64,000 nt of DNA, taken from Candidatus Omnitrophota bacterium. Lineage in GTDB: Bacteria; Omnitrophota; Gorgyraeia; 2-02-FULL-51-18. Below, piece after piece: positions 1 to 12,595 of this stretch (position 1 is the stretch's first letter; every line of letters begins with the position of its first letter). The notes under the pieces are model-generated. The model was not told the origin of the DNA and did not search any database. It saw only the letters and a list, made by a program, of their open reading frames with translations. The stretch is taken from assembly GCA_945877765.1 (NCBI GenBank), contig CAMDWQ010000012.1, forward strand, positions 1 through 64,000. Direction: 5' to 3'. A program made the translations under genes and the position numbers.

Positions 1-142
1 TCGTTGTTTTGCTGATGGATACAATCGTTGGGGAGCCGCAGAACGTGTCGGGAAAGGTGGCGGCGAGGATTCGCGGGAATGAGCCAACACCCGTGCGCCA
101 CGCTTTTAACACGGGCAACACGGGGTTCGAAACTCAAAGCTG

Positions 143-215
143 TGGACCTGAGCGGGATCGAACCGCTGACCTCCTCATTGCGAACGAGGCGCTCTACCAG
201 CTGAGCTACAGGCCC
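143..215 (-). tRNA. tRNA-Ala, anticodon CGC (73 nt, CCA not encoded)
   Basis: Read by eye as the reverse complement, it folds as a cloverleaf: 7-bp acceptor stem with the G3:U70 Ala identity pair, D-loop AGCTGGTAGAGC, anticodon stem CCTCG/TGAGG with loop TTCGCAA (anticodon CGC), T-arm GGTTCGATCC, discriminator A. Confidence 0.85.
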
Positions 216-222
216 AAAAATC

Positions 223-1314
223 TTATACGCTTGCTATTATTGGAGTTGCAATAGTAACGGAATCCATTTCCTCTGTCAACTTTGCCGACTGTGCTAAAAC
301 TGTGATAACGTTATCCAGAATCCTCACAGCCTTCGCCTGAAAGTCCGGCGACAAGTGCGAATAGCGCTGGGTCATTTCCGTCGTCCTATGCCCCAGAAGC
401 CCCTTCACAGCAAACAAAGTCACTCCCGACATCACAAGGTGAGAGGCGAAGGTGTGCCGCAGATCATGGAAATGAAAGTCCGTGATCTTGGCGTTTGTCA
501 GCGCCGTCTCAAAAGCCTTGCGAAAGTCGTAAGTTTTGCCTTCCTCGTTCGGAAAAACCAGTGAGCTGTTGGACTGTTTCGGCTGTGCCATCAATGCACC
601 CATGGCCGAATCGTTGAGCGGTATATGCCTTTTGAAGCCGCTTTTACTGATCGCGACTACAAGTTGCCGCTTTTGAAAATCAACGTCATTCCACTGCAAC
701 TGCTGGATTTCTCCCTTACGCATGCCTGTATGGAGAGCCAAGGTAACAACGTTTCTGAGCTTTAGGTCTCTGCAAAAACCGAGAAGACGCGCTATTTCGT
801 CTTTCTCAAGATACCTTACGCGCTCGTTATTAGCCTCGTCTCCCTTGTACCGCTCCACGTCTTTCATTGGGTTGTCGTGCAAGAGCTTCCACTTGATCGC
901 CTTGTTGAACATCGTACAAAGCGTGCAAAGCTCCCGCTTGACCGATGAGCGCTTGACTACCTTTTGCCGCTCAATCTTATAATCCTCGATCATCAAAGAC
1001 GTAATCTGATACAGGAATTTCTCCCCGAAGAAAGGAATGAGGCTCGCATGGTGACTTTTATCGGCGCGCTTCCAAGATTTCTTGTAAGGAATCGCGTGCC
1101 TCTGCATGTACGTCTCTGCAAAGTCCTTGAAAAGCACCTTCTCATTCTTCTTTATATCGAGGTACTTACCCTCGGCGATCTCGGTCATCCGCTTGTGATA
1201 GAACTTTTCCGCTGATCTTTTATTCGTGGTTTCAGCCGGAACGCGGACTTGCCTTCCCTCGAAGGTATAACCCATCCAGTACTGTTTACCTCTCCGATAA
1301 ACCCCCATCGCCAT
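223..1314 (-). CDS. int: Tyrosine-type site-specific recombinase (phage integrase family)
   Basis: 363 aa. C-terminal catalytic region has HDLRHTFAS (H-x-x-R) and LLGHRTTEMTQRYSHL (the conserved Tyr). The gene stops 8 bp before the tRNA-Ala 5' end. Confidence 0.9.
   Translation of the reverse strand: MAMGVYRRGKQYWMGYTFEGRQVRVPAETTNKRSAEKFYHKRMTEIAEGKYLDIKKNEKVLFKDFAETYMQRHAIPYKKSWKRADKSHHASLIPFFGEKFLYQITSLMIEDYKIERQKVVKRSSVKRELCTLCTMFNKAIKWKLLHDNPMKDVERYKGDEANNERVRYLEKDEIARLLGFCRDLKLRNVVTLALHTGMRKGEIQQLQWNDVDFQKRQLVVAISKSGFKRHIPLNDSAMGALMAQPKQSNSSLVFPNEEGKTYDFRKAFETALTNAKITDFHFHDLRHTFASHLVMSGVTLFAVKGLLGHRTTEMTQRYSHLSPDFQAKAVRILDNVITVLAQSAKLTEEMDSVTIATPIIASV
288..307. promoter_or_regulatory. 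Candidate integrase arm-type site: tandem tgtgNta half-sites (actgtgctaaaactgtgata). A near-identical copy lies at about 7624-7643.
   Basis: A 20-nt motif with 18/20 identity occurs in direct orientation about 73 bp inside the left junction and about 118 bp inside the right junction. Confidence 0.4.
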
Positions 1315-1385
1315 CCTCTACTTTCTAAGCAGAGCGTAGGTGCTGGCGTCAGGTGCATTTAGTTTAATACACCCCCCATAACGGG

Positions 1386-1568
1386 TCAATTTATCTTCTC
1401 GACTTTGCACGCATCGAGATATTTTTCGATATCGCTTTGACGAAACTTAACCAAGCGCCCGATCTTCACGAATGGAATCTTCTTTTCGCTTACCCACTTG
1501 TACAACGTGCTAACGCTTACGCCCAACATTTCCGAAATGTCCTTAATACCCATCAGCTTCTCTGCCAT
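1386..1568 (-). CDS. AlpA/excisionase-family HTH DNA-binding protein
   Basis: 60 aa. IKDISEMLGVSVSTLYKWVSEKKIPFVKIGRLVKFRQSDIEKYL is the typical AlpA / MerR-like HTH_17 pattern. It lies directly upstream of int on the same strand. Confidence 0.8.
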   Translation of the reverse strand: MAEKLMGIKDISEMLGVSVSTLYKWVSEKKIPFVKIGRLVKFRQSDIEKYLDACKVEKIN

Positions 1569-1720
1569 GTGACTTTGCTCCCATTACTTGGGCTTGACCC
1601 AAGTCGAGTGGTCGCTCCGTGCATGAGCAGAATCGCCTGCCCCCGGCATTGTCCGAATGCCAAAAAACTACAAACAGCCCCAAAGGAACACCAGATCCAC
1701 CAGTAACACCAGATGAGTCC

Positions 1721-3037
1721 TCACCCGGCAACTGGAGGTTCTGGTGTTTCTGAGGCATCTGGTTCTTTTCCAAGCCCAAACGATCGAGCAAGTTTGTTGA
1801 TTCTAGACAAATCCCACAGGATCGCCGATGAGCCGTTGGCGGTTTTTGCTTTCTGAAAGCCAAGAGCACCCAAGACTCGTCCGATTTTGGTAGGCGTGAG
1901 CGTGTATTCTCTAACCGTATTTACTAAAGCTGTAATTGCCATAACGGGTAAAGCGCCGTTGACGACGGCATAGTCCAGGCCGAGTATGGCTTCTATAATT
2001 TGCGCTTCCAAGCTTAGGGCTCTTTCGTTGCGTTTTTCCTGCATGACGCGGCTCACATATTCCACAAAAATCTCCTCACGTTCTGGCCGCGCTAAACGTA
2101 TGACTTGATGTAACGGCTTCAAAACATCACCCAAACGGCCTTTATCGGGTTTGCGAATGTCTGGCAACTGCTTTCCGAGATGCCGGGCCCGGAATGCTAC
2201 AAGGCGCTCACGCAAAGGTAAGCAAATATCCTCCGTAACTTCGTTCTCGAAGTTTTTCTCCGTTGGCAACATTGAAATAGTCAAGCCGCGAGTTTCTAAT
2301 GTGTCGTCGATCGGCTCATTTGTTGCAAGGACTGTCGGCCCAAAGACTGTATAGTACTTGGTGTCTTTGAAACTACCTTTGTCTGGATTGAGAACACGTG
2401 GAACTTTCATTCCCTTCATAAAGCGCCCCAGGAGCGCATCCTGGCTTTGATTCTGAAGTGCCGTTTGCCATACATCTTTAACATCTGCAAAAAGTGAACA
2501 GCCGAGATCATGCCCAATACGTAGCAGATACGCTTCACGGAGAGAAGTGGCGTGAAACCCTCGATAGGCAACGAATATCATCCCTTGCCCTGTACGTGTT
2601 TTTCCACGTTCTGCTACCGAATAAAAGCAAATGATCGGTGAAAATCGAACAGCCTCCAACATGTACGTGTGCATAACCCAAGCGGCAAGGAGGTCGTACT
2701 GCGCTTCGTCGGGCAATTCTGAAATTGCTCTGTGATGTTGTAAGAGTTCATCGTAGAGCGCGGCATCAACAACGTTTGGCGCTAAAGATACCTCGGCATT
2801 GTAAATTCGGAGGACTTCCTGAGCTCGTGGAAGTCGCCAGGGTACCTCGGGCGGGGGCAAGATAGTTTCTTGGTCAAATGAATAGCGCTCGTACACGGTG
2901 AGTTCATTACCTTCTTTAACGAGAAACGCGGGATGCCCTTTGAATTCTACAAGATCAACGAGTCCATCAAAGTAAGCAGTATAGGTGACTTGCGGAGAAC
3001 GGCTGTGATTGGTATTTAACATCTTATATCTCCTCAT
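1721..3037 (-). CDS. Hypothetical island protein, 438 aa; possible replication or regulation role judged from position only
   Basis: Long uninterrupted ORF co-oriented with alpA and int. No Walker A or other motif I can recognise. In P4-like and PICI-like islands this slot often holds a primase or replication protein (inference). Confidence 0.5.
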   Translation of the reverse strand: MRRYKMLNTNHSRSPQVTYTAYFDGLVDLVEFKGHPAFLVKEGNELTVYERYSFDQETILPPPEVPWRLPRAQEVLRIYNAEVSLAPNVVDAALYDELLQHHRAISELPDEAQYDLLAAWVMHTYMLEAVRFSPIICFYSVAERGKTRTGQGMIFVAYRGFHATSLREAYLLRIGHDLGCSLFADVKDVWQTALQNQSQDALLGRFMKGMKVPRVLNPDKGSFKDTKYYTVFGPTVLATNEPIDDTLETRGLTISMLPTEKNFENEVTEDICLPLRERLVAFRARHLGKQLPDIRKPDKGRLGDVLKPLHQVIRLARPEREEIFVEYVSRVMQEKRNERALSLEAQIIEAILGLDYAVVNGALPVMAITALVNTVREYTLTPTKIGRVLGALGFQKAKTANGSSAILWDLSRINKLARSFGLGKEPDASETPEPPVAG

Positions 3038-3054
3038 TTTTTTGAGAGCGTAAG

Positions 3055-3282
3055 TTAACGTTGAAAAACCATATCCTTTAGCGTTCTGTACGCATCGGAG
3101 TAAACCTTCGCCTTTACACTGCCCCCGTTGTAGTAATCAAGGGCATCTTTATGGACTTTGTCGCTGTCCTCAAAAAGTAGCGTGACTTTAGAGCCTGTGG
3201 TTTCTTTGCCAGCAATTGAGTGGCCTTTGGAAAGAAGATAACTTGCTTCGTAGAGGTTTTGCGTTTTATAGAAGTTCTTCAT
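3055..3282 (-). CDS. Small hypothetical protein (75 aa) resembling a conserved phage- or island-associated small family
   Basis: ATG start with an aaaggaaa ribosome-binding site upstream. The pattern F-K-T-x-N-L-Y-E-A-S-Y-L-L-S-K-G ... LLFED ... YYNG ... Y-R-T-L-K matches, from memory, a small DUF-type family seen in phages (DUF5659-like, unverified). Confidence 0.45.
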   Translation of the reverse strand: MKNFYKTQNLYEASYLLSKGHSIAGKETTGSKVTLLFEDSDKVHKDALDYYNGGSVKAKVYSDAYRTLKDMVFQR

Positions 3283-3565
3283 CTCTATTTCCTTTTGGAT
3301 CGCTCAGCCAGACAAAAAAGGCCAGGCGATCGCTGTTTGTTTCAGCTTCGCCCGGCCTATGTATATAAAATAAAAGCGCCGCAACGAAACAATATGATTC
3401 TTTGTTTTCGCTGCGGCTTGACTTGTTTGTCAGTCGCTTATTTTTTGGCTTACTTCTGCTCCTGCGAAATTATCGCATCACGCACGAGCACTCCAAAACC
3501 TAGTGTTATAATACCACGACACACAAAAATATCAAGCGTCTTTACCCGAAGAAACTTCTCATGGG

Positions 3566-3979
3566 TTATTTAGAGCTTTTTTCTCGCCGTACAGATTCAA
3601 GCTTATTTAACCATAAAGCAAACAACTCACGAAGGATTTGCAAGGCGGCGGTTAGAAAACCAACCAGAAGTATCAGGTACGCCCAGACAACCTGCGCAAA
3701 AAGCCACAGGAAGAACATCATAACCAATCCACTCATCAAGCCATCGAAAGAAAATATTTTTCTGCGGTACTTAACAATAGCGAAGAGCGCTGCAGTGAAC
3801 GCGCATAAGGCGAATACTAAATATCTATTCTGGGCTGTAAAAAAAGGCGCCCCGCAGATAAGCGCTCCAAATATGGTGAAACAAGTGGGAAGATTATCAG
3901 AATTCTCATCCTGAGAAAGAATAAAAAAGTGGGGGTATCGAATAACCTCCCAAACATTTTCAAGGATCTTCATACTCAC
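3566..3979 (-). CDS. Hypothetical integral membrane protein (about 135 aa, three or four predicted TM helices)
   Basis: Strongly hydrophobic segments (FTIFGALICGAPFF, LVFALCAFTAALFAIV, LVMMFFLWLFAQVVWAYLILLVGFLTAAL). An ATG two codons inside the ORF has a gaagggtgag Shine-Dalgarno-like sequence upstream. Confidence 0.5.
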   Translation of the reverse strand: MSMKILENVWEVIRYPHFFILSQDENSDNLPTCFTIFGALICGAPFFTAQNRYLVFALCAFTAALFAIVKYRRKIFSFDGLMSGLVMMFFLWLFAQVVWAYLILLVGFLTAALQILRELFALWLNKLESVRREKSSK

Positions 3980-4142
3980 CCTTCATAACGATTTGTTTCA
4001 TTTCCTTTCTGATACGACTCAAGTTCTCCGCTCGGAAAGTTTTTGCTCATACTTATAACTCATTTTATCCGGTAGCCCTCAAGGCAGGCAAGAAGTATTA
4101 CGAAGTATCACTTCGTGGTTAGTTTTCACTGATAGCCAGATA

Positions 4143-4370
4143 ATTAGAGGCATAACAACCCCGAAGATAAGGCTCCAATTAGCGGAGAAGTTAAAGCGAG
4201 AGCGCCGAAGGGCTAAACTTACTCAGGAAGAAATGGCAGAATTGGTCGGCGTCAGTACGAGGTTTTATCAGATGCTTGAATCGAAAAAACCGACCGCGAT
4301 CCCGGTCGACACCCTTGAAAAACTTGCCAAGGCGTTGAAGACTACGCCCTCCAAACTGCTCAACTTTTAA
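4143..4370 (+). pseudogene. XRE-family HTH regulator with a degraded start codon (ATA where ATG is expected); the only in-frame ATG would start inside the HTH
   Basis: The plus-strand frame is open from 4059 to the TAA at about 4368-4370. It encodes ...IRLQLAEKLKRERRRAKLTQEEMAELVGVSTRFYQMLESKKPTAIPVDTLEKLAKALKTTPSKLLNF, a textbook XRE HTH. There is no ATG, GTG or TTG in frame before M at about 4233. Confidence 0.5.
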
Positions 4371-4380
4371 GCCGCAATGG

Positions 4381-5568
4381 TCAATCTGTAGCCGCCGGGC
4401 TATCCTCAAACCAATTAGGGATTTTGCCGTACTGATCGGCGGCACGGTGTATAGCTTGTATTGATTCTGGGTGAGTGGGCCTAATTTTTGGATGAAGTGG
4501 AAATACTGACAACGTATCCTTACCAGGGTCCGGCTCAAGGTCTCGAGCATAATGCTGAGGATGGTTTGTAAAAACCGCCAAATTGAACTTATCCGGATTT
4601 TGCGTGCTCGGAAGCCCGGTCAGCACGCTAAAAGTGTCCATAATTTCTTTAGCCCACGGCTTCTCCAGCGATCCTCTACCTGTTACATGCGGGAGATTCA
4701 GATCAATAAATATAACTTTAGGATCAGTAGTAGGCTTATCTAGCGCACTCCGCAGCAGTGGCTCAATATCGGCCTTTTGTTCATGTGGTGCTTTAAAAAG
4801 CCCTCCCAGAAACCCCTTCACCCCGCGCCGATGTCTACTTTTTGCCTCGACCGCAACCCTTTGGCCGGTTACTTCATGAACGCCAATGAACTCATGATGC
4901 TTTCGCGTGTTGTCCGATTCGTCCTCATACTTTAGCTTATACCCAGCTCGTATACAGGCCGCCGCTACAAATAGCTCATATCTTGCACCCTGAAACTGCT
5001 TGGGGTCTTTAAGCCTCTTGACGACATCGGCCTGTAGTGACTGATGGTCATCCAGTCTGTAGAGGTCATGAGCGAGATGCAGATAGGCGGCGGCACTGCC
5101 ACTGGGAATGCCTCCGTAAAGACCATGTTCGTTCACCGGCTGTGCTTGCTGATAAAGACAGAGACCGTTATACCATTTGAGAATCTCATGCCGATCCTTC
5201 AAAGGCTTTAGTATTTCTTTCTTGCCCCAGTCGTCGCTTTTGTTCAATACGTGCGTAATATAATAGAATAGGAAATCCGGCACGGTTTTCCATTTTTTTG
5301 AGTAATGCATGGTGCTGTGCACCGCGACGAACCTGTAACCCTGATACATCGCACTAATAATAGGCCGCCCAAATCCGTATTCCGCGGCGTGGGCAGCCTC
5401 GCGGAGCTGCTGTTCGCGCATGATCTCTTTGTATTTTTCAAGAAGTTCTGGCGACATCTCGCTATAAGGCTGAGCCTTGTCAAGCTTGAATGGTTTATCG
5501 CGACAACATTTTTTATACTTCTTTCCGCTGCCGCACGTGCAAGGGTCATTCCGACCGATATCAGCCAT
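4381..5568 (-). CDS. SEC-C zinc-motif protein (395 aa) with a possible nuclease-like E-x-K motif; unknown function, candidate defence or toxin effector
   Basis: N-terminus MADIGRNDPCTCGSGKKYKKCC is the SecA C-terminal (SEC-C) metal-binding motif. A later segment HEFIGVHEVTGQRVAVEAKSR is weakly PD-(D/E)xK-like. ATG start with GGAA upstream. Confidence 0.7.
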   Translation of the reverse strand: MADIGRNDPCTCGSGKKYKKCCRDKPFKLDKAQPYSEMSPELLEKYKEIMREQQLREAAHAAEYGFGRPIISAMYQGYRFVAVHSTMHYSKKWKTVPDFLFYYITHVLNKSDDWGKKEILKPLKDRHEILKWYNGLCLYQQAQPVNEHGLYGGIPSGSAAAYLHLAHDLYRLDDHQSLQADVVKRLKDPKQFQGARYELFVAAACIRAGYKLKYEDESDNTRKHHEFIGVHEVTGQRVAVEAKSRHRRGVKGFLGGLFKAPHEQKADIEPLLRSALDKPTTDPKVIFIDLNLPHVTGRGSLEKPWAKEIMDTFSVLTGLPSTQNPDKFNLAVFTNHPQHYARDLEPDPGKDTLSVFPLHPKIRPTHPESIQAIHRAADQYGKIPNWFEDSPAATD

Positions 5569-5645
5569 CTAATTTTCCTATTGAACAAAAAGGGGGAGCG
5601 TTTTTTAGGCGCTCCCCGGATATCACATCAAATTATATAAACTAA

Positions 5646-6908
5646 TTACTTCGTACGGCCGCCTTTACTCGCCAAGCAATGGGTCATATACTCCGCCCAG
5701 ACATGCGCCGACATAGCCTCCCAAACAACCCCCGACTTTCCGACTTTATCAAGGTTGTAATTGGCATCAACTGTTTGAAGGCGCAGGGTTTGATAGAGCT
5801 TTGGCCCTACCTTATCTGCAATGGTATACCAGACAGACGGATTTTCGCGCTCGCTTAGTACCATTTTTGTGAATGAATATGCAAGCGGCAAAAGCCACGA
5901 CTTAAGCACCTTATATCTGATCGTTTTCTTCAGAAAAACTAGCGTAGTGCTACCAGTCATAATGCCAGCTACATTTCCGAAGCCCGACTTTTTCTTGGGT
6001 TTCTTTTCTTCAGTCGCCTCGTCATATAAGTTAGCTCTTCCCTCTGCTTCGTTATACCAGTCCTCGAACCTGGAATGGATATAATCCACGAACTTAAGAT
6101 ATTCGAAAGCAACATCTCGGATGCTCTTAAGACCAGCCATTAAGCCATCCGGCCTCTTATCCGTTTTGAGATCGCTTATCATCTTTCCTGGACCGTTATA
6201 ACAACGAATTTTCGATTCAAGCTTCGGGTTCAGTAAAGAAAGAGTGGCTATCACGTCTTGCCCGTTTACATCGCCTGAAAGATCGAACTGCCTCCAATTA
6301 ATTTGACCGTAAACTCCCTTATCTTTCAGGATGTCCGTGAACCAGTTCAGATCATCCGATAAGATCAGAAGGCTCAGGTCCTTAACAGACATATTGGTAT
6401 TTCTTGCGCCTACAAGGTCAGCTAGCTTTTGCGGATCGATACCTGTAAGAACCTCCAGGGTCACGTGCTGACGATCACCGGCGGCGGTTGGGTTGATCCA
6501 ATCGCCAGACTGGAGCATATCCATAATAACTTTGTTTGTGTGGCCGCCATCCAAATTACCAAACGTGCTTTCAATTGGAGAAACCTCGTTTTTTAGAAAC
6601 GATAAACGAAGCTCGTTCTTGACGTTATCGTATTCCGCTTCGTGCGCGTTCAAAACAATCCCACGATTGTAGTACATGAACCATCCAGGCTCCGTCTTCA
6701 AACCCTCACGTATCGCCTGCGCGACTTTGGTGTCCATACTTTGATTACGTGGGTTTGGACCAAATGTGATAGCGGCCTTGCTTATCTCGTCCACGGAAAC
6801 CTGGGCGATGATGCGCTTTCTGCCCCTGCCATTAGGGTCAGGAAACGTCTTGCAGTGATCGGGTTGAACTTTGATTGATACGGTAATAGGGGAGAGAACT
6901 GATGCCAT
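5646..6908 (-). CDS. Hypothetical protein (420 aa); unknown function, paired with the SEC-C protein downstream
   Basis: Long ORF with a strong AAGGAG ribosome-binding site before the ATG, ending 77 bp before the SEC-C gene on the same strand. No NTPase motif. Loosely reminiscent of Abi-like (AIPR-type) proteins, which I cannot verify by eye. Confidence 0.65.
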   Translation of the reverse strand: MASVLSPITVSIKVQPDHCKTFPDPNGRGRKRIIAQVSVDEISKAAITFGPNPRNQSMDTKVAQAIREGLKTEPGWFMYYNRGIVLNAHEAEYDNVKNELRLSFLKNEVSPIESTFGNLDGGHTNKVIMDMLQSGDWINPTAAGDRQHVTLEVLTGIDPQKLADLVGARNTNMSVKDLSLLILSDDLNWFTDILKDKGVYGQINWRQFDLSGDVNGQDVIATLSLLNPKLESKIRCYNGPGKMISDLKTDKRPDGLMAGLKSIRDVAFEYLKFVDYIHSRFEDWYNEAEGRANLYDEATEEKKPKKKSGFGNVAGIMTGSTTLVFLKKTIRYKVLKSWLLPLAYSFTKMVLSERENPSVWYTIADKVGPKLYQTLRLQTVDANYNLDKVGKSGVVWEAMSAHVWAEYMTHCLASKGGRTK

Positions 6909-7252
6909 GGTGAGACTCCTTTAATATCCCGGTAATTAGTTCAAGCACTAGCTGATGCCGAGTACGCCATCAACAGCACTGCTCGCTCTCATGAGCCAGC
7001 TGATACATAACGTACCACGCTAGCGATGATTTGTCGACCCATTTTTTTGATACATGATAATTTTGAGAATTCCAAAAATAGATGCTTTAAATACCAAATT
7101 GAGGCGGGATTAATTCACCGGGGAAGCGGCTCCGAGTTCGCCATCCTCGGTAGCGTCCTTCGGCGCTCTCTCGGCACAGCCAATATCCGATAATCGCGAT
7201 TATCCGACATTGTCCTTGGCTCACCCTCCGCACGTCCTCGCACTCGCTCGGA

Positions 7253-7275
7253 TTGACATAAGTATCTTATGTCAA
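7253..7275. promoter_or_regulatory. Perfect 10-bp inverted repeat with a 3-nt spacer (ttgacataag-tat-cttatgtcaa); candidate operator
   Basis: Seen directly in the island's non-coding arm, about 345 bp upstream of the 420-aa gene start. Confidence 0.35.
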
Positions 7276-7761
7276 CTTCCCGTGGCGACTTCAATCATTA
7301 GGTGGTAGCGCACAGGAGCGACCATTTTTGGTGCCGGGTATAGCAGCGGACTTATTATACATTGATGGTACCTTTGGGGGGATACCGGCGGCTCCTACCC
7401 CTACAAGAAATTAATTCTATTTGATCAGACCGTTAACGGGGGCAGAGATAGAAAAGGATAAAGAGGCTCGCTTCCTCGCTCCTCCCTCTAAGAGATCACA
7501 GCGCTCAGCACATAAAGTACACAAGTATGGCACAGCAAGTCACAGCACGGCACAGGAAGTACACATACTGCCCCCGTCAGCGAAAAGAACGCCCACCGCC
7601 AATACCTACGCTCTGCTCGGTTCATTGTGATAAAACTGTGATAGAACTAAGGAAAAACAAGGAATATCACGACAAAGACAGGTTAGATGAAAAACCGTAA
7701 GTGCTTGAAACTACAATGTAGCGGAGAATATAAGATAATCAGGGACAAAGCTCGGTTCACT

Positions 7762-7799
7762 TTGCGAACGAGGCGCTCTACCAGCTGAGCTACAGGCCC
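7762..7799 (-). repeat. Partial tRNA-Ala copy (nucleotides 1-38, to the end of the anticodon loop); distal att repeat of the island
   Basis: Exact 38-nt identity with 178-215. Identity stops precisely at the anticodon-loop / 3' anticodon-stem boundary. Confidence 0.75.
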
Positions 7800-7861
7800 G
7801 TCTCTGGCACAAACCAAGCAAAGAAAAAAATCTGAAAAAAATCTATTTCACCCCACAAATG

Positions 7862-8013
7862 AAGGTCCGCTCGCACTCGGCCGACGTAAGACTTTTAGTC
7901 TACGGCTCGGGTGCTGGCCCAGCACTCTACCATCTCACCCCTCACAGAAGGTCCGCTCGCACTCGGCCGACGTAAGATTTTTAGTCTACGGCTCGGGTGC
8001 CGGCCCAGCACGC
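7862..8013. repeat. Two tandem copies of a roughly 66-bp element (period about 86 bp, two mismatches)
   Basis: aaggtccgctcgcactcggccgacgtaagacttttagtctacggctcgggtgctggcccagcac is repeated with two substitutions. Each copy contains the small hairpin gtgctggcccagcac. It lies between cutA and the island junction. Confidence 0.6.
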
Positions 8014-8015
8014 TG

Positions 8016-8330
8016 CTATTTTAACGTGTCTTGAAGCCATGCCAGATACCCGGCATCCCCACCCTTCACCGTCAGCGCCAAAATCTCAGGAACTTTATAC
8101 GGATGAATCTCACGTAGCGTTTTTTGCAGAGTCTTCAATTTCGCCGAAGTCGTTTTGACTAAAATTAAAACTTCACCCGTTGCTTCAATCCTGTGTTTCC
8201 ACCGATAAACCGATTTCCATCCGCCCTGGTACGAAACACAAGCCGCCAATTTTTTCTCAACCAACACTCTGGCGATTTTACGCGCAGACCGAGCATCCTT
8301 TGTTGTCGAAAAGACAACAAAGGCACTCAT
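8016..8330 (-). CDS. cutA: Divalent-cation tolerance protein CutA
   Basis: 104 aa. VVFSTTKDARSARKIARVLVEKKLAACV ... HPYEVPE-like core typical of CutA1. Confidence 0.8.
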   Translation of the reverse strand: MSAFVVFSTTKDARSARKIARVLVEKKLAACVSYQGGWKSVYRWKHRIEATGEVLILVKTTSAKLKTLQKTLREIHPYKVPEILALTVKGGDAGYLAWLQDTLK

Positions 8331-8533
8331 TAAAAACGAAGTGTCACTTTGTAGTTATCGGCGCCCTCTTGATCCAGAATAATATGTCCTTCGCGCGCCA
8401 GCCAGCCAAGACTCATGAGCACGACGTTACGATCCCTCTCGGTCCCTTTGACCAAATCGTTCAAACTGCAAGATTTACGCGTATCTAAAAAATGCCAGAT
8501 ATCTCCGGCAACAATCCCAATTTCTGTAATCAT
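8330..8533 (-). CDS. Small hypothetical protein (67 aa), possibly winged-helix
   Basis: ORF abutting the cutA start. No confident family assignment. Confidence 0.35.
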   Translation of the reverse strand: MITEIGIVAGDIWHFLDTRKSCSLNDLVKGTERDRNVVLMSLGWLAREGHIILDQEGADNYKVTLRF

Positions 8534-8626
8534 GTGAACCTCCCTTTAAAAAAATAGTCTAAACCGGTAAAAGATAACTCCAAAGAAGCTCTATCATAAA
8601 CGCCGCCCCAAAGGAAATCAATGAGA

Positions 8627-8872
8627 TTAAAAAAGCCGCTCTTCGGGAGATTTTTTATTGTAGCTCTTGCATTGCGGGCACTGGGAAATCTCCTGATGAG
8701 TGGAGTCCACATACGTGTAGGTGCAGATTTTGCATTCCCAGACATCGGCTTCCTCCCGGACAAACTTAGGAAGCGCGGTCTTTTTCTCGAAAAAAATCCA
8801 CAATACAAAAATAGCCAAAAGGGATGTCATCACGTAAAAAAATATGGCCATTGAAATATCGACGGGAAACAT
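8627..8872 (-). CDS. Small membrane-anchored zinc-ribbon protein (about 81 aa)
   Basis: An ATG at about 8870-8872 follows 2 nt after the stop of the upstream gene. It has an N-terminal TM helix, then C-K-I-C ... C-P-Q-C (CxxC...CxxC). Confidence 0.4.
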   Translation of the reverse strand: MFPVDISMAIFFYVMTSLLAIFVLWIFFEKKTALPKFVREEADVWECKICTYTYVDSTHQEISQCPQCKSYNKKSPEERLF

Positions 8873-8874
8873 CC

Positions 8875-9369
8875 TTAAAGCCCCTGTTCTCTGGCCAAGC
8901 GAAGGCGTTTTTCCTTCTCTTCTTCGGTTTCCCCTGGCAATGACAACGCGGCTTCCTCGGCCCATTCGAAATCAGGCGCCGCTTTGACGCCGCCAACAAC
9001 TTCTCTGAGCGACGCGATCAGTTTTTTTCCAAAAGGAACGCTGACGACGTCGCCTTTCATTTGACGCGGTATCGCCTCAACAGGCAGTTCTGCTGCCGCT
9101 AAAAAATCAGAGGGACGGCGATAAAAGGACTGCGAAAGCTCAGGCCGGCTCTCCACGAGCGTTTTAAATATCGCATCGTCCATGACAGGCCCCAAAGATA
9201 CCAGATAGGGCCTTGGTTTTTCCGCTTTCTTGGGAGGGCTCACCACAATTTTGATAGAAAAAAACCAAAAAAAATGCCACAAAAGAGAAAAAGCAAGACC
9301 CACAAAAAAAGTCCGGTCCCAAAAAGACCAACTGCGATACTCCCTGAGATTGCGGCTTCTGCCGGCCAT
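8875..9369 (-). CDS. Hypothetical membrane-anchored protein (164 aa) at the TonB/TolA position of the ExbBD operon
   Basis: N-terminal TM helix, charged C-terminal region, sits immediately downstream of exbD. It lacks the Pro-rich TonB hallmark, so I give no family call. Confidence 0.4.
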   Translation of the reverse strand: MAGRSRNLREYRSWSFWDRTFFVGLAFSLLWHFFWFFSIKIVVSPPKKAEKPRPYLVSLGPVMDDAIFKTLVESRPELSQSFYRRPSDFLAAAELPVEAIPRQMKGDVVSVPFGKKLIASLREVVGGVKAAPDFEWAEEAALSLPGETEEEKEKRLRLAREQGL

Positions 9370-9374
9370 GGGCT

Positions 9375-9788
9375 TTATCCGCCCGCTTTCTGATTAGTCG
9401 CAATATTAATCTGAGACACACCGGCATCGCGGCAAAGATCCCAGATTTCAACGACACGCCCGAGAGAGGCGCCGGCATCCGCTTTTAAGAGCACGGTCTT
9501 GTTTTCATCGGCGGCAATCTTGATTTCACGAGTCAATTCAACGATAGTTGTGGGCATCTCATTCAAAAATAAAAGATCCTGCCCAGTCAGGGTCACTGTA
9601 AGATTACGACTGCTAAGGACTTCGCTGGTGATGGCTTTGGGCAAACTTACTTTGATGCCGGGCTGAATGACAAAGTTGGAAGTCAGCATGAAGAATATCA
9701 AAAGCAGAAACATCACGTCGATGAGCGGCGCGATATCCAACTGTCCTTTTTTAATTTCAGTTCTTCGTTTGAGCCTGGTGAATCTCAT
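9375..9788 (-). CDS. ExbD/TolR-family biopolymer transport protein
   Basis: MRFTRLKRR...LDIAPLIDVMFLLLIFFM is the typical ExbD/TolR N-terminus and TM segment. Confidence 0.8.
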   Translation of the reverse strand: MRFTRLKRRTEIKKGQLDIAPLIDVMFLLLIFFMLTSNFVIQPGIKVSLPKAITSEVLSSRNLTVTLTGQDLLFLNEMPTTIVELTREIKIAADENKTVLLKADAGASLGRVVEIWDLCRDAGVSQINIATNQKAGG

Positions 9789-9809
9789 GCGGCGGCTTCT
9801 CCCCGATCG

Positions 9810-10442
9810 TTAGGATTCATTTTCATTGCGGCGTTCACCAAGAATGTTTAAGAGATCCGTGGCGCTTCGTTCCATATCCAAAACAAAACCATCCACGCGG
9901 CTCACCAGATAATTATAGGCAACATACGTCGGAATCGCCACGCACAACCCAAATACGGTCGTCAGAAGGGCTTGCCATATGCCCCCGGCAAGATCCCCCG
10001 GATTGACGGGGTTGACAGCGCCCGCCTTGGTTTCGATGACTTGAAATGCCGCAACCAAACCGGTGACAGTACCCAAAAGGCCCAATAGCGGCGCCACGTG
10101 CGCGACTGTCGCCAGAACCGGCAGATTTCGTTCAAGACGCGGAACTTCGTGCACGCTGGCATCCTCAATAGCCTCGCGGACTTCGTGGCGAGGACGGTCA
10201 TGCTTTAAAATTCCCGCCTTTAGAAGGTTGGCAATTGGCCCGCCCGTCTTATCGCACAGGTCAAGAGCTTCCATAATTTTATTGCGCTTAATGGATTTTG
10301 AAATCTGCTCCATGAATGTTTTGGTATCGATTTCTTCCTGCCGCAGTCGTATAAGCCGCTCGATTACAATCGCAAACGCCACCACCGAACACAGCAGAAT
10401 AGGCCACATGATAGGCCCGCCTTTTTGCATAAATTCCCACAT
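9810..10442 (-). CDS. MotA/TolQ/ExbB-family proton channel
   Basis: 210 aa with three TM helices and the conserved C-terminal TM pair (LATVAHVAPLLGLLGTVTGL). Confidence 0.8.
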   Translation of the reverse strand: MWEFMQKGGPIMWPILLCSVVAFAIVIERLIRLRQEEIDTKTFMEQISKSIKRNKIMEALDLCDKTGGPIANLLKAGILKHDRPRHEVREAIEDASVHEVPRLERNLPVLATVAHVAPLLGLLGTVTGLVAAFQVIETKAGAVNPVNPGDLAGGIWQALLTTVFGLCVAIPTYVAYNYLVSRVDGFVLDMERSATDLLNILGERRNENES

Positions 10443-10456
10443 ACATTTCCCTCCCT

Positions 10457-12595
10457 TTATTTAATGATTTTTTCTTTCAAGTCCTGGCTTTCATACGTCC
10501 GTCCATCCGCCTTTAAAATTTCGGCGAGTTTTTCCCGTGCCTCTGAACGGTAAGGCTCTCGGGCTGGCGCGTTCATCACTTTTAAATACTCTAGCCGCGC
10601 CTGAGGCAGTTTTCCTTGAGAAACTAAAAAATCACCCACTTTTAAAAGACCTTTTGCGGCAAGCTCTGAGTCAGGAAACTTTTGCGCCAGCAGTTGCAGT
10701 TGCCCAACCGCACCCCAAATATCACCTTCGCGCTCATGAGTCATGGCGATAGCAAATAGCGCGTCATCCGCCTTGGCGCTATCGGGAAACTCAAGCCCTA
10801 TCCTCTGATAATAAACTCGCGCCTTCTCATACTGCCCCTTATTGTAGCTGTATTCGCCCAAACCGTACAACACATCCGGCGCGTTGTCACTGCGCGGATA
10901 CGCCGATAGATAATTTTCAAATTCGCGAACCGCCTCGTTTTCCCTTTTGGAATGGAAATAACACCACGCCTTTTGATAGCGGGAAAGCCTTCCGACTTCA
11001 GTCTGGGGGTATTGCGCGGATAACTGCTGATAAATCTCAAGCGCCTTATCATACTGCGCCAAACTAAAATAACCGTTGGCCATCTGAAATAAGCTCTTAC
11101 TTTTTAGAAGGCTGTCCGGATAAAGCGCCTCCAATTTCTCAAAATGCTTTATCGCTTCGGCGGATTGATTTTTCTGCAGAAGCGCCGAGCCAATCTGGTA
11201 CATCGCTTCGTCGCATAAATGACTGTTGGGAAAACGCAGCAACAGGCTTTGAAAACTTAAAATCGCTGAGTCGTGGCGTCCAAGACGGCCTAGGACAGCA
11301 CCCACTTGATACTGCGCATAATCCGAATAAACACTCTCCGGAAAATCTTTCAAAACACGGTCATAGGACTCGAGTGATTTTTCCAACTCATTTTTTTCAA
11401 GATATGTATCGCCGATGCGGCAGAGAGCATTGGTCTTTAGGACATCGTCTGGCGTACTATCGGCGGCTCTTTGAAAATGGGCAACCGCCTCGTCGGGGCG
11501 CAATAATCGCACACACACCCAACCGAGATTATATTCAATTTCGGCCGCCAAGGGACTGCCCGGAAATTTCATGAGCGCCTGCTCATAAAAATCTTCGGCT
11601 TCCTGGTAGCGCTCTAATTCATACAACGACTGGGCTTTCCAAAAAAGGAATTCATCCATCAGATCAGCCTTCGGAAACAGCTGGATGATCCGGTCTAGCG
11701 TCTGCGCGGCTTCCGCAAACTTTTTAAGCTGCATCAGCGTGCGTGCGTGCCCAAAAAGAAACGAATCCAGCTCCGGGTTATGGGCCTCTTGACTCTCGGA
11801 CAATGAAAAATAAACCAGCGCCTGCGGATAGAGTCCCAATCTAAAACTGCACCAGCCCGCCCGTTCAAGAGAGACCAAATAAAACTCACTGTCCTCTCCA
11901 AAATCCAGGCTCTTTTTAAAAAAATCGAGTGCCGCCGCGTACTGGCCGAGGCTGTAGAAACATTCACCCAGAAGATACTGGGCGGCAAGCGCTTTCGGGC
12001 TTAAAGGAAAATCCTGGATATAGGACTCGAGCTTGGCCGAAGCCTCTTCATATTTTTTAGCCTCGTAATCATACTGCCCAATTTTATAGCGGGCCTCCGT
12101 AGCCAATGGGTCCAGTGGAAACTCTTTTGCGATTTCCTCCATGATTTCAATCGCTTCAGCAAGGCCGCCGGTTTCTCCCAGACACCAGGCTGCAGAGAAT
12201 TTGGCATGAATATAAAATTTAGAGGCGGGGAATTGATTTAAAATTTTCTGATAAAACCTCAGTGCTGAAATATAGTCCTTGGCTCTAAAATAGGTTTCCG
12301 CGGTCCAATACGCCGCCTCTTCCTCCAAAGGGAGTCCGTCGGAGTCATTTAAGAGGGATTCCAGCGTCTTGGACGCCTCGCCCAATTCTCCTCTCTCAAA
12401 CTGCGCCCGGCCCAAAAGAAATCTCACCGAACCTGTTTTTTTGGACCCGGGATATTTTTCTAAATAGTCCAATGCCTTTTCCTTGACGACAGAATAAAAT
12501 TTATCTCTATAGGCTTGTCGGATGGAAGTGTAATCAACTTCTTCGGTTGTTTCGGCGAAAGCGTTTAAAGCGACAAAAAACAAAATAAATATCAA
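10457..12595 (-). CDS. Tetratricopeptide-repeat protein with a signal peptide (probable TTG start at about 12595)
   Basis: Many TPR-like repeats throughout. The track ORF runs to 12691, but its first 32 codons translate a palindromic intergenic element. A TTG followed by the LIFILFFVALNAFA signal peptide and preceded by a GGGGG stretch is the more likely start. Confidence 0.7.
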   Translation of the reverse strand: MIFILFFVALNAFAETTEEVDYTSIRQAYRDKFYSVVKEKALDYLEKYPGSKKTGSVRFLLGRAQFERGELGEASKTLESLLNDSDGLPLEEEAAYWTAETYFRAKDYISALRFYQKILNQFPASKFYIHAKFSAAWCLGETGGLAEAIEIMEEIAKEFPLDPLATEARYKIGQYDYEAKKYEEASAKLESYIQDFPLSPKALAAQYLLGECFYSLGQYAAALDFFKKSLDFGEDSEFYLVSLERAGWCSFRLGLYPQALVYFSLSESQEAHNPELDSFLFGHARTLMQLKKFAEAAQTLDRIIQLFPKADLMDEFLFWKAQSLYELERYQEAEDFYEQALMKFPGSPLAAEIEYNLGWVCVRLLRPDEAVAHFQRAADSTPDDVLKTNALCRIGDTYLEKNELEKSLESYDRVLKDFPESVYSDYAQYQVGAVLGRLGRHDSAILSFQSLLLRFPNSHLCDEAMYQIGSALLQKNQSAEAIKHFEKLEALYPDSLLKSKSLFQMANGYFSLAQYDKALEIYQQLSAQYPQTEVGRLSRYQKAWCYFHSKRENEAVREFENYLSAYPRSDNAPDVLYGLGEYSYNKGQYEKARVYYQRIGLEFPDSAKADDALFAIAMTHEREGDIWGAVGQLQLLAQKFPDSELAAKGLLKVGDFLVSQGKLPQARLEYLKVMNAPAREPYRSEAREKLAEILKADGRTYESQDLKEKIIK

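Follow-up and report, generated by a model that had tools for sequence, protein, structure and literature searches.

In the usual arrangement, the attachment site of an integrative element (attP) carries the 3′ part of the target tRNA gene, and the gene keeps its promoter. In the Islander collection, 3760 of the 3919 islands have a 3′ fragment of the tRNA gene and 159 have a 5′ fragment (PMC4383910; Hudson, Lau and Williams 2015), and in bacteria a recombinant tRNA gene retains the promoter it had, 'with very few exceptions' (PMC8371274). Integrases of the pTN3-like type target the tRNA gene's 5′ half, and the gene is then expressed from the promoter of the integrase; such a case is 'seldomly encountered in bacteria' (PMC8371274). 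Here we analysed a 64-kb stretch of DNA from a Candidatus Omnitrophota bacterium (ENA metagenome contig ERZ27280294 k141_3114406; hereafter, the window), which very probably contains a 7.58-kb integrative genomic island of this uncultured host, inserted site-specifically in the anticodon-loop region of the tRNA-Ala(CGC) gene. The element is precisely delimited and comes from a phylum known almost wholly from metagenomes; no paper focused on integrative islands in Candidatus Omnitrophota was found in a limited literature search.

The tRNA-Ala island fits the documented minority of 5′-fragment islands, and its unusual feature is the geometry only; the current understanding of genomic islands is unchanged. 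As in the 5′-fragment class of Islander, an intact tRNA gene is accompanied by a co-oriented end fragment, with the 5′ fragment upstream, the integrase inside, and a crossover that would be centred on the anticodon. The difference from this class is that, in the clade of the window integrase, the integrase gene lies directly upstream of the regenerated tRNA gene (7–10 nt), and no Omnitrophota case is documented here for the class. In Thermococcales, integrases of the pTN3-like type (Cossu et al. 2017; reviewed in PMC8371274) likewise use the 5′ half of a tRNA gene as the chromosomal attachment site (attB), with the gene being restored and expressed from the element. They are, however, archaeal integrases of plasmid and virus elements, whereas the island is hosted by a bacterium and has a separate promoter-like site within its integrase gene; the likeness is a functional analogy only. 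Finally, the P4-like satellites and phage-inducible chromosomal islands (PICIs) (Rousset et al. 2022, PMC9122126) are similar in their small size, integrase, small helix-turn-helix (HTH) gene, replication protein, and variable anti-phage cargo. Unlike these satellites, the island lacks genes for packaging or capsid redirection, has no known helper, is predicted to encode a primase-less helicase, and has a tRNA 5′ half, not a 3′ end, as its integration site.

The island and its attachment sites

A single tRNA gene was detected by ARAGORN in the 64-kb window, an intact tRNA-Ala(CGC) at 142–215 on the minus strand, which also matched Rfam RF00005 (143–215; 66 bits); a scan of positions 1–9000 with Rfam gave nothing else. 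The 38-mer TTGCGAACGAGGCGCTCTACCAGCTGAGCTACAGGCCC occurs exactly twice in the window (0 expected, 100 shuffles), at 178–215 within this gene and at 7762–7799. Read on the tRNA strand, it comprises nt 1–38, from the 5′ end of the acceptor stem to the final base of the anticodon loop, and thus includes the 5′ strand of the anticodon stem (nt 27–31, CCTCG) and the entire loop (nt 32–38, TTCGCAA). The preliminary description, made from the sequence alone, had placed an intact tRNA-Ala at about 143–215 and an exact second copy of nt 1–38 at 7762–7799, and both are confirmed. The repeat at 178–215 is the integrase-proximal att core and forms the 5′ half of a recombinant tRNA gene, the 3′ half of which (142–177) is host-derived. 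The distal att core at 7762–7799, also on the minus strand, is a displaced 5′ fragment of tRNA-Ala in its native position beside cutA, where related species have the intact gene. Beyond the distal copy, no tRNA 3′ half is found, and the sequence there (AGTGAACCGAGC...) is unlike one. The two repeats are spaced by 7584 bp, and seven open reading frames (ORFs) lie between them, all on the minus strand and all uninterrupted. The right flank has the housekeeping genes expected from the preliminary description (cutA, exbD, exbB, and uvrA), together with genes for a DUF2582 and a TPR protein; the island genes, the flanking cutA operon, and tRNA-Ala share one orientation.

The features by which Islander recognizes an island are all present: a complete tRNA gene that shares its replicon and its orientation with a cognate end fragment; a terminal 5′ fragment, starting at nt 1, upstream of the intact gene (at the higher coordinate on the minus strand); a tyrosine integrase inside the interval; and a length of 7584 bp, within 2–200 kb. 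The island is also absent at the same site in ~20 related species, with no island gene in any of 80 related loci; no empty site of the same species was found.

The ExbB of the window is 81–95% identical to its best 27 genome matches, all from metagenome-assembled genomes of Candidatus Omnitrophota, some of which were deposited as 'uncultured Planctomycetia'. In ~20 of these species, an intact tRNA-Ala(CGC) gene comes after cutA at a distance of 7–580 bp, usually <200 bp and nearly always on the same strand, and the 38-nt fragment of the window occupies the exact site of this gene, the only tRNA-Ala(CGC) of the relatives. Homologues of the integrase, the 438-aa helicase described below, and the DUF5659, SEC-C, and AIPR proteins were absent from all 80 loci. 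The alignment of the locus with relatives, which the preliminary description had put forward as the way to an empty site, gave both of its contiguous halves: one locus (L010) aligns without a break over the native upstream flank together with the entire tRNA (86%), and another (L008) has the whole tRNA contiguous with a homologue of window positions 1–141. Because the relatives have an intact tRNA-Ala at the site of the fragment and no island gene occurs in the 80 loci, the element is supported as an insertion, relative to the related species, bounded by att repeats in tRNA-Ala. A second, independently decayed tRNA-Ala gene behind the fragment, named in the preliminary description as a way in which the reading as an island might fail, is excluded, the fragment being at the sole tRNA-Ala(CGC) site of the relatives with no 3′ half after it.

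The overall GC content of the island (0.470 vs 0.476 in the rest of the window) is not distinctive and was rejected as a signal of foreignness; the AT-rich interior seen by eye in the preliminary description is real only as a local dip to 0.41–0.43 over ~3000–4250. The GC comparison suggested there as support for a foreign origin thus failed. Tetranucleotide usage, however, does stand out, with an L1 distance of 0.225 for the island; windows of equal size from the rest of the stretch give 0.106 ± 0.011 (maximum, 0.142), which puts the island ~11 SD from the host background.

The integrase gene (int; 223–1314, minus strand) encodes a 363-aa tyrosine integrase (PF00589, 3e-37; phrog_1, 2.5e-70), for which gene callers give 361 aa with a start at 1308. 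Its stop codon (223–225) is separated by 7 nt from the 5′ end of the tRNA gene, in agreement with the earlier view of a tyrosine recombinase gene ending beside that end. The catalytic R-K-H-R-H/W-Y set of tyrosine recombinases is present as Arg197, Lys222, His281, Arg284, His307, and Tyr316, which are invariant in an alignment of 30 sequences including the window protein. Next to it, at 1386–1568 (minus strand), is the excisionase gene (xis) for a 60-aa HTH protein (HTH_17/MerR-like; PF12728, 2e-16, 60 bits; TIGR01764 'excise', 2e-14, 53.5 bits vs a cutoff of 28.8; phrog_66). The earlier assignment as an AlpA-type excisionase-like protein therefore holds for the excisionase family; a strict AlpA identity (PF05930) was rejected, as the Phage_AlpA score of 17.0 bits is below the cutoff of 21. 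An HTH_17 gene is located upstream of int in most of the related loci.

The element integrase is of the heterobivalent type, and candidate arm-type sites for it were found near both island ends. The site TGTGCTAAAACT at 290–301 (plus strand), in the int-proximal arm, is 75 bp from the core. The arm motif TGTGMTARAACT was found five times in 64 kb (0.7 expected); four of the hits are in the island (290, 1194, 7626, and 7637) and three near its ends, with the adjacent pair spanning 7626–7648; the reconstructed attP would place the arm motifs ~75 bp and ~115–135 bp from the core. In addition, GCTCGGTTCA repeats are located at 7615 and 7750, and one arm of a 21-nt inverted repeat in the int–xis spacer (1328–1348) pairs with 7597–7617. 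Several of these sites are in the ORF-poor 853-bp arm adjoining the distal att copy (6909–7761), which holds arm motifs, repeats, one inverted-repeat arm, and a 23-nt palindrome (TTGACATAAGATACTTATGTCAA, 7253–7275); its RNA folding energy is somewhat lower than that of shuffles (z = −2.9). Regulatory sites or a small RNA could be located in this arm, as could decayed genes.

Displacement of the tRNA 5′ half

In the related species, tRNA-Ala comes after cutA and has the same orientation, and the fragment at 7762–7799, still beside the native upstream region, is therefore the original 5′ half of the host gene. The intact tRNA gene, in turn, consists of an att repeat and the host 3′ half just downstream of int, and therefore attP must carry the tRNA's 5′ half. 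This geometry is the mirror image of the usual one, and the rebuilt tRNA gene is without its native upstream DNA. In the mechanism that we propose, the tyrosine integrase would recombine the element into the anticodon-loop region of tRNA-Ala(CGC), where the crossover position is presumed to lie; integration would strand the host 5′ half at its native site by cutA and would rebuild an intact tRNA gene at 142–215 from the island-borne 5′ half and the host 3′ half, and the HTH_17 protein would direct excision. The rebuilt gene would be driven by the sequence TTGACA-17-TACTAT inside the 3′ end of int (251–279, minus strand), a sigma-70-like promoter candidate by consensus match only (10/12), the −10 hexamer of which ends 35 nt upstream of the tRNA +1 position. 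Alternatively, it would be driven by read-through, which is possible because the island genes, the cutA operon, and the tRNA gene are all co-oriented. In either case, the rebuilt tRNA-Ala is probably expressed from the island.

Relatives of the integrase number in the thousands, many of them from Omnitrophota, and a search of IMG/VR with the integrase gave one distant match only. In a second set of loci, 80 metagenome loci found with the integrase profile, 42 have a tRNA gene within a few hundred base pairs downstream of int; 13 of these are co-directional as in the window and are mostly closer relatives, and the other 29 are convergent, as in classical islands. Among the informative loci, an island of 10.4 kb (L180/L182; integrase 45% identical to that of the window) has a tRNA-Arg(CCT) gene starting 9 nt after the int stop codon and an exact repeat of nt 1–40 located 10.4 kb upstream. 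A second (L173; 45%), at tRNA-Arg(ACG), has a repeat of nt 1–39 bounding 13.4 kb, with a degenerate att remnant after int, and is apparently composite. In a third group (L166–L169; 50%), only nt 1–38 of tRNA-Met(CAT) are present, in the order int, TTGCTG-17-TATAAT, tRNA 5′ half, and non-tRNA sequence, and two of the contigs end exactly at nt 38; this is the layout that attP would be expected to have. In two further loci, the tRNA-Thr(TGT) gene starts 10 nt after the int stop codon (L170; 46%; far end not found) and the tRNA-Arg(CCT) gene overlaps the end of int (L183; 45%). No repeat was found within the available flanks at the far ends of nine co-directional metagenome loci. More distant integrases (L103 and L112; 35%), at tRNA-Arg(ACG) and tRNA-Met(CAT), respectively, have the classical arrangement with direct repeats of nt 33–77. 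The segment shared by the 5′-type repeats and these classical repeats is therefore the anticodon loop, which is the expected crossover region for anticodon-type integrases (PMC8371274). The related islands, 5.7–13 kb in length and of similar module order, occur in several species and at different tRNA genes, with only int and xis being common across the family. Together they provide several clean bacterial examples of the rare 5′-half tRNA integration, in which the element must supply the expression signals of the tRNA, and the exact att sites, the integrase–excisionase pair, and the related islands could be a starting point for genetic tools or for the tracking of gene flow.

In a rough neighbour-joining tree constructed from tblastn fragments, the window integrase falls in a clade in which all 12 of the 12 members with an int-adjacent tRNA gene have it downstream and co-directional, and the 5′-half mode appears to be a trait of this clade. 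We tentatively propose, with slightly less than even confidence, that the window integrase belongs to a bacterial clade, so far seen mainly in Omnitrophota and in uncultured lineages close to it, with the 5′ half of tRNA genes as its systematic target. In the attP of this clade, a promoter and nt 1 to ~38–40 would immediately follow int, each integration would put the host tRNA under the transcriptional control of the island, by read-through from int or by a promoter within int, and excision would return it. The basis of this proposal is the three complete 5′-half islands, the single attP-like configuration, and the 12 co-directional clade members, which support the geometry and give no support for a regulatory or addictive consequence. 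If true, the clade would be a bacterial counterpart of the archaeal pTN3 and could couple the supply of a tRNA to the state of an element.

Other features of the related loci were observed. One contig (L179, 16044–20526) has two copies of tRNA-Arg(ACG) followed by 3′-half fragments (nt 31–78, 38–75, and 58–76), and is a classical, multiply used integration hot spot; an integrase belonging to this family is ~5 kb away. The contig with the 5′-type island at tRNA-Thr also has a separate small insertion at tRNA-Tyr(GTA) (L170, 15812–18516) with a 38-nt repeat of nt 47–84, of the classical 3′ type. The island at tRNA-Arg(CCT) in L183/L184 (int, 8824–9945; tRNA 5′ end at 9907, overlapping the end of the integrase ORF) contains Shedu (SduA_C), HNH, PLDc_2, and kinase + FHA genes; L180, from another species, is in the same host locus (5-FTHF cyclo-ligase, xseA, and xseB).

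Predicted replication and cargo genes

The gene at 1721–3037 (minus strand) encodes a 438-aa protein predicted to be a replicative helicase (MCM/SF3-like AAA+) from its fold and the domains of its homologues. No sequence match to it was found in Pfam, PHROG, NCBIfam, or the Protein Data Bank (PDB). Its AlphaFold2 model (pLDDT, 91) matched, in a Foldseek search (E, 5e-8 to 1e-4; probability, 1.0), the helicase region of NrS-1, Cch of SCCmec, PrimPol of African swine fever virus (ASFV), poxvirus D5/E5, PriRep1, and MCM, with TM-scores of 0.3–0.44, which indicate a match at the domain level only. The predicted fold, the P-loop, and the C-terminal helical or winged-helix-like part are like those of the NrS-1 C-terminal region, Cch, D5/E5, ASFV PrimPol, and PriRep1; the identity to these helicases is 9–14%, and the 438-aa protein stands alone with no primase domain, whereas its homologues often have one. 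Many of them (~280 relatives were detected) are ~200–300 aa longer, with Toprim/DnaG, Prim-Pol/PriCT, DUF3854, or RepB-primase domains in precomputed annotations. The conserved P-loop is Glu143-Arg-Gly145-Lys146-Thr-Arg148 (ERGK(S/T)R), in which Gly145 and Lys146 are invariant. We therefore regard this protein as the predicted replicative helicase of the element, without a primase, and it would support the replication of the excised circle. Searches with the helicase found no relative among 50,697 cultured phage genomes and no match among plasmids. In one viral contig (L185; IMG/VR UViG_3300032156_002408, 1–10482), an integrase, a 620-aa ORF with a match to the helicase family, a portal gene, and a major head gene are found together, which shows that the predicted helicase family is also used by capsid-encoding elements.

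Just upstream of the helicase gene, a 75-aa DUF5659 protein is encoded at 3055–3282 (minus strand; PF18903, 3e-8). The DUF5659 gene has the same position in two related loci (L166 and L170), just upstream of an ORF of 432–514 aa; these ORFs were considered as homologues of the window helicase and rejected, no homology being detectable. The next ORF (3566–3979, minus strand), in the low-GC patch, encodes a small hydrophobic protein of 137 aa (a 135-aa gene in the source record), for which no family match was found and which, judged from its sequence, is probably located in the membrane.

Two larger genes follow. The SEC-C zinc-motif protein (395 aa; 4381–5568, minus strand; PF02810, 5e-9) has a predicted PD-(D/E)xK nuclease-like domain, in which Asp219, Glu241, and Lys243 are invariant; the Foldseek search with this protein was not significant, and the nuclease assignment is tentative. 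Its family comprises widespread solo genes of ~380 aa in varied contexts. The closest homologue (L176, 9736–11787) adjoins a gene for a 683-aa AAA_15 ATPase (OLD/Gabija-like), which hints at defence-type neighbourhoods for the family. The second protein (420 aa; 5646–6908, minus strand) belongs to the AIPR family (AbiU1/AIPR abortive infection; PF10592, 2e-14), with 54.4 bits against a cutoff of 25 over profile positions 2–123; homologues at 30–32% identity span nearly the whole profile, with fusions to Mrr_N or DpnI_C in some of them. The subgroup is rare, with 454 representatives among 1.84 billion proteins. In a PDB sequence search with the helicase, the SEC-C protein, and the AIPR protein, the SEC-C zinc motif was the sole match. 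In PMC3506569, AIPR/AbiU1 is handled as a family of abortive infection tied to restriction–modification systems, and AIPR genes are present in the defence hot spots of P4 satellites (PMC9122126).

It is a reasonable inference that the AIPR and SEC-C proteins are candidate defence cargo, and, judged from their families, this AIPR and SEC-C/PD-(D/E)xK-like cargo would most likely act against phages or other foreign DNA. PADLOC gave hits only for the HTH protein (mad1-like) and the SEC-C motif, with no call of a defence system and no model hit for the AIPR protein. The Mza system (MzaABCDE) was rejected, with 17.7 bits for MzaE against a cutoff of 1050 and no partner mzaA–D genes. A two-gene system of SEC-C and AIPR is not demonstrable, as their co-occurrence was not seen elsewhere and the SEC-C homologues are solo genes. 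Defence-like cargo is also found in the related islands (Shedu SduA_C, HNH, PLD, and HEPN_AbiU2). The cargo, which the preliminary description had taken to be non-essential accessory genes, can now be described more specifically as defence-like genes together with a predicted replication helicase. Three uncharacterized families are thus flagged on such elements: the Pfam-less MCM/SF3-like helicase, the SEC-C/nuclease-like protein, and the rare AIPR subgroup.

Competing explanations and flanking features

Several observations weigh against the reading of the locus as an integrative island with the mechanism proposed above. No empty site of the same species and no circular (attP) junction were found, a search of JGI metagenomes for the exact attB pattern returned 0 hits, and exact-protein look-ups found the CutA of this strain in one sample only. 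The Logan assembly, made independently from ERR5863105, is broken at the 38-bp repeat. Scans against Pfam, PHROG, and NCBIfam revealed no primase or packaging gene among the island ORFs, and no island ORF matched a relaxase or type IV secretion component in Pfam or NCBIfam (oriT was not searched for). The island contains ~1.5 kb of ORF-poor DNA in stretches of 853, 401, and 283 bp, the small ORFs of which gave zero Pfam matches, and which could reflect decay. As for expression, the promoter scan was overall not enriched (10 sites vs 9.9 expected), and comparable sites in the related loci match at 9–11 of 12 positions in three of them (L096, L098, and L167) and at 7–8 of 12 in most others. The rough tree is a weak point for the clade. 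On the absence of relaxase and type IV secretion matches, with the same reservation for oriT, an integrative conjugative or mobilizable element was rejected; so was a prophage, there being no structural, terminase, or lysis gene among the seven ORFs and a length of only 7.6 kb.

Part of this evidence would also suit a remnant, fixed and decaying, of some larger element or of a temperate phage, which would have integrated once through the att site and would now be immobile, with its genes domesticated or eroding. The island has no structural, packaging, relaxase, or primase genes, its helicase is without the primase domain found in many homologues, and a related helicase occurs in the contig with portal and major head genes; the ORF-poor stretches and the failure to detect an excised or empty form point in the same direction. 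However, the 38-bp repeats are perfect, the catalytic residues of the integrase are all kept, xis is intact, and none of the seven ORFs is interrupted, while the related islands of 5.7–13 kb, with similar module order in several species and tRNA genes, suggest an actively spreading family. We therefore consider a remnant unlikely. The preliminary description had taken the island to be intact or recently active, and the perfect repeats together with the seemingly intact int and xis would favour this view.

It is even less probable that the element is a phage satellite (PICI-, P4-, or PICMI-like), excised and replicated upon induction by a helper phage and packaged in its capsids, with the defence genes as hot-spot cargo. 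The int–xis–replication order, the small size, and the defence-like cargo do resemble P4-like satellites with AIPR hot spots (PMC9122126), and the helicase family also occurs in the contig with integrase, portal, and major head genes. On the other hand, no terminase small subunit, capsid-remodelling, or packaging gene is found, no PHROG match exists outside int and xis, no helper phage is known for the host, and the cultured phage genomes contain no relative of the helicase.

The absence of any insertion, with a local duplication of tRNA-Ala and decay of one copy or a metagenome mis-assembly at the shared 38-mer, is largely refuted and scarcely credible: the single sample and the split in the second assembly would be in line with it, but the fragment has no 3′ half and is exactly at the site of the intact gene in relatives, the contig name indicates k = 141, which needs words across the 38-bp repeat at both junctions, the Logan contig has the break expected at k = 31, and the int-then-tRNA geometry with 5′-half repeats recurs in independent assemblies. 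The Logan island contig of 7606 bp is composed of the interior and 30 nt of the repeat at each end. A break there is expected because a k = 31 graph cannot span a 38-bp repeat, and it is therefore evidence neither for nor against a circle or excision; its use as evidence for a circle was rejected on this ground.

Apart from the integrative island, two features of the flanks were observed. A large serine recombinase has its C-terminal ~44 aa encoded at window positions 1–140 (plus strand), converging on the 3′ end of tRNA-Ala, and the reading of 1–141 as plain native flank was rejected accordingly. The encoded end is 55% identical (E, 9e-11) to a 471-aa ORF with Resolvase, Recombinase, and Zn_ribbon_recom domains (L008, 12496–13911), which likewise follows tRNA-Ala(CGC) directly on its downstream side and is bordered by an inverted repeat of ~120 nt. 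A second mobile element may thus be located on the 3′ side of tRNA-Ala. On the opposite side, in the interval from the stranded tRNA fragment to the stop codon of cutA, a hairpin-bearing element of 73–84 nt is present in tandem (7861–7933 and 7947–8019; 93% identity; 86-bp spacing), with no match in Rfam. One copy is present in the Logan assembly of the same sample, and one in L010, where, at 80–87% identity, it is better conserved than CutA (55%, protein).

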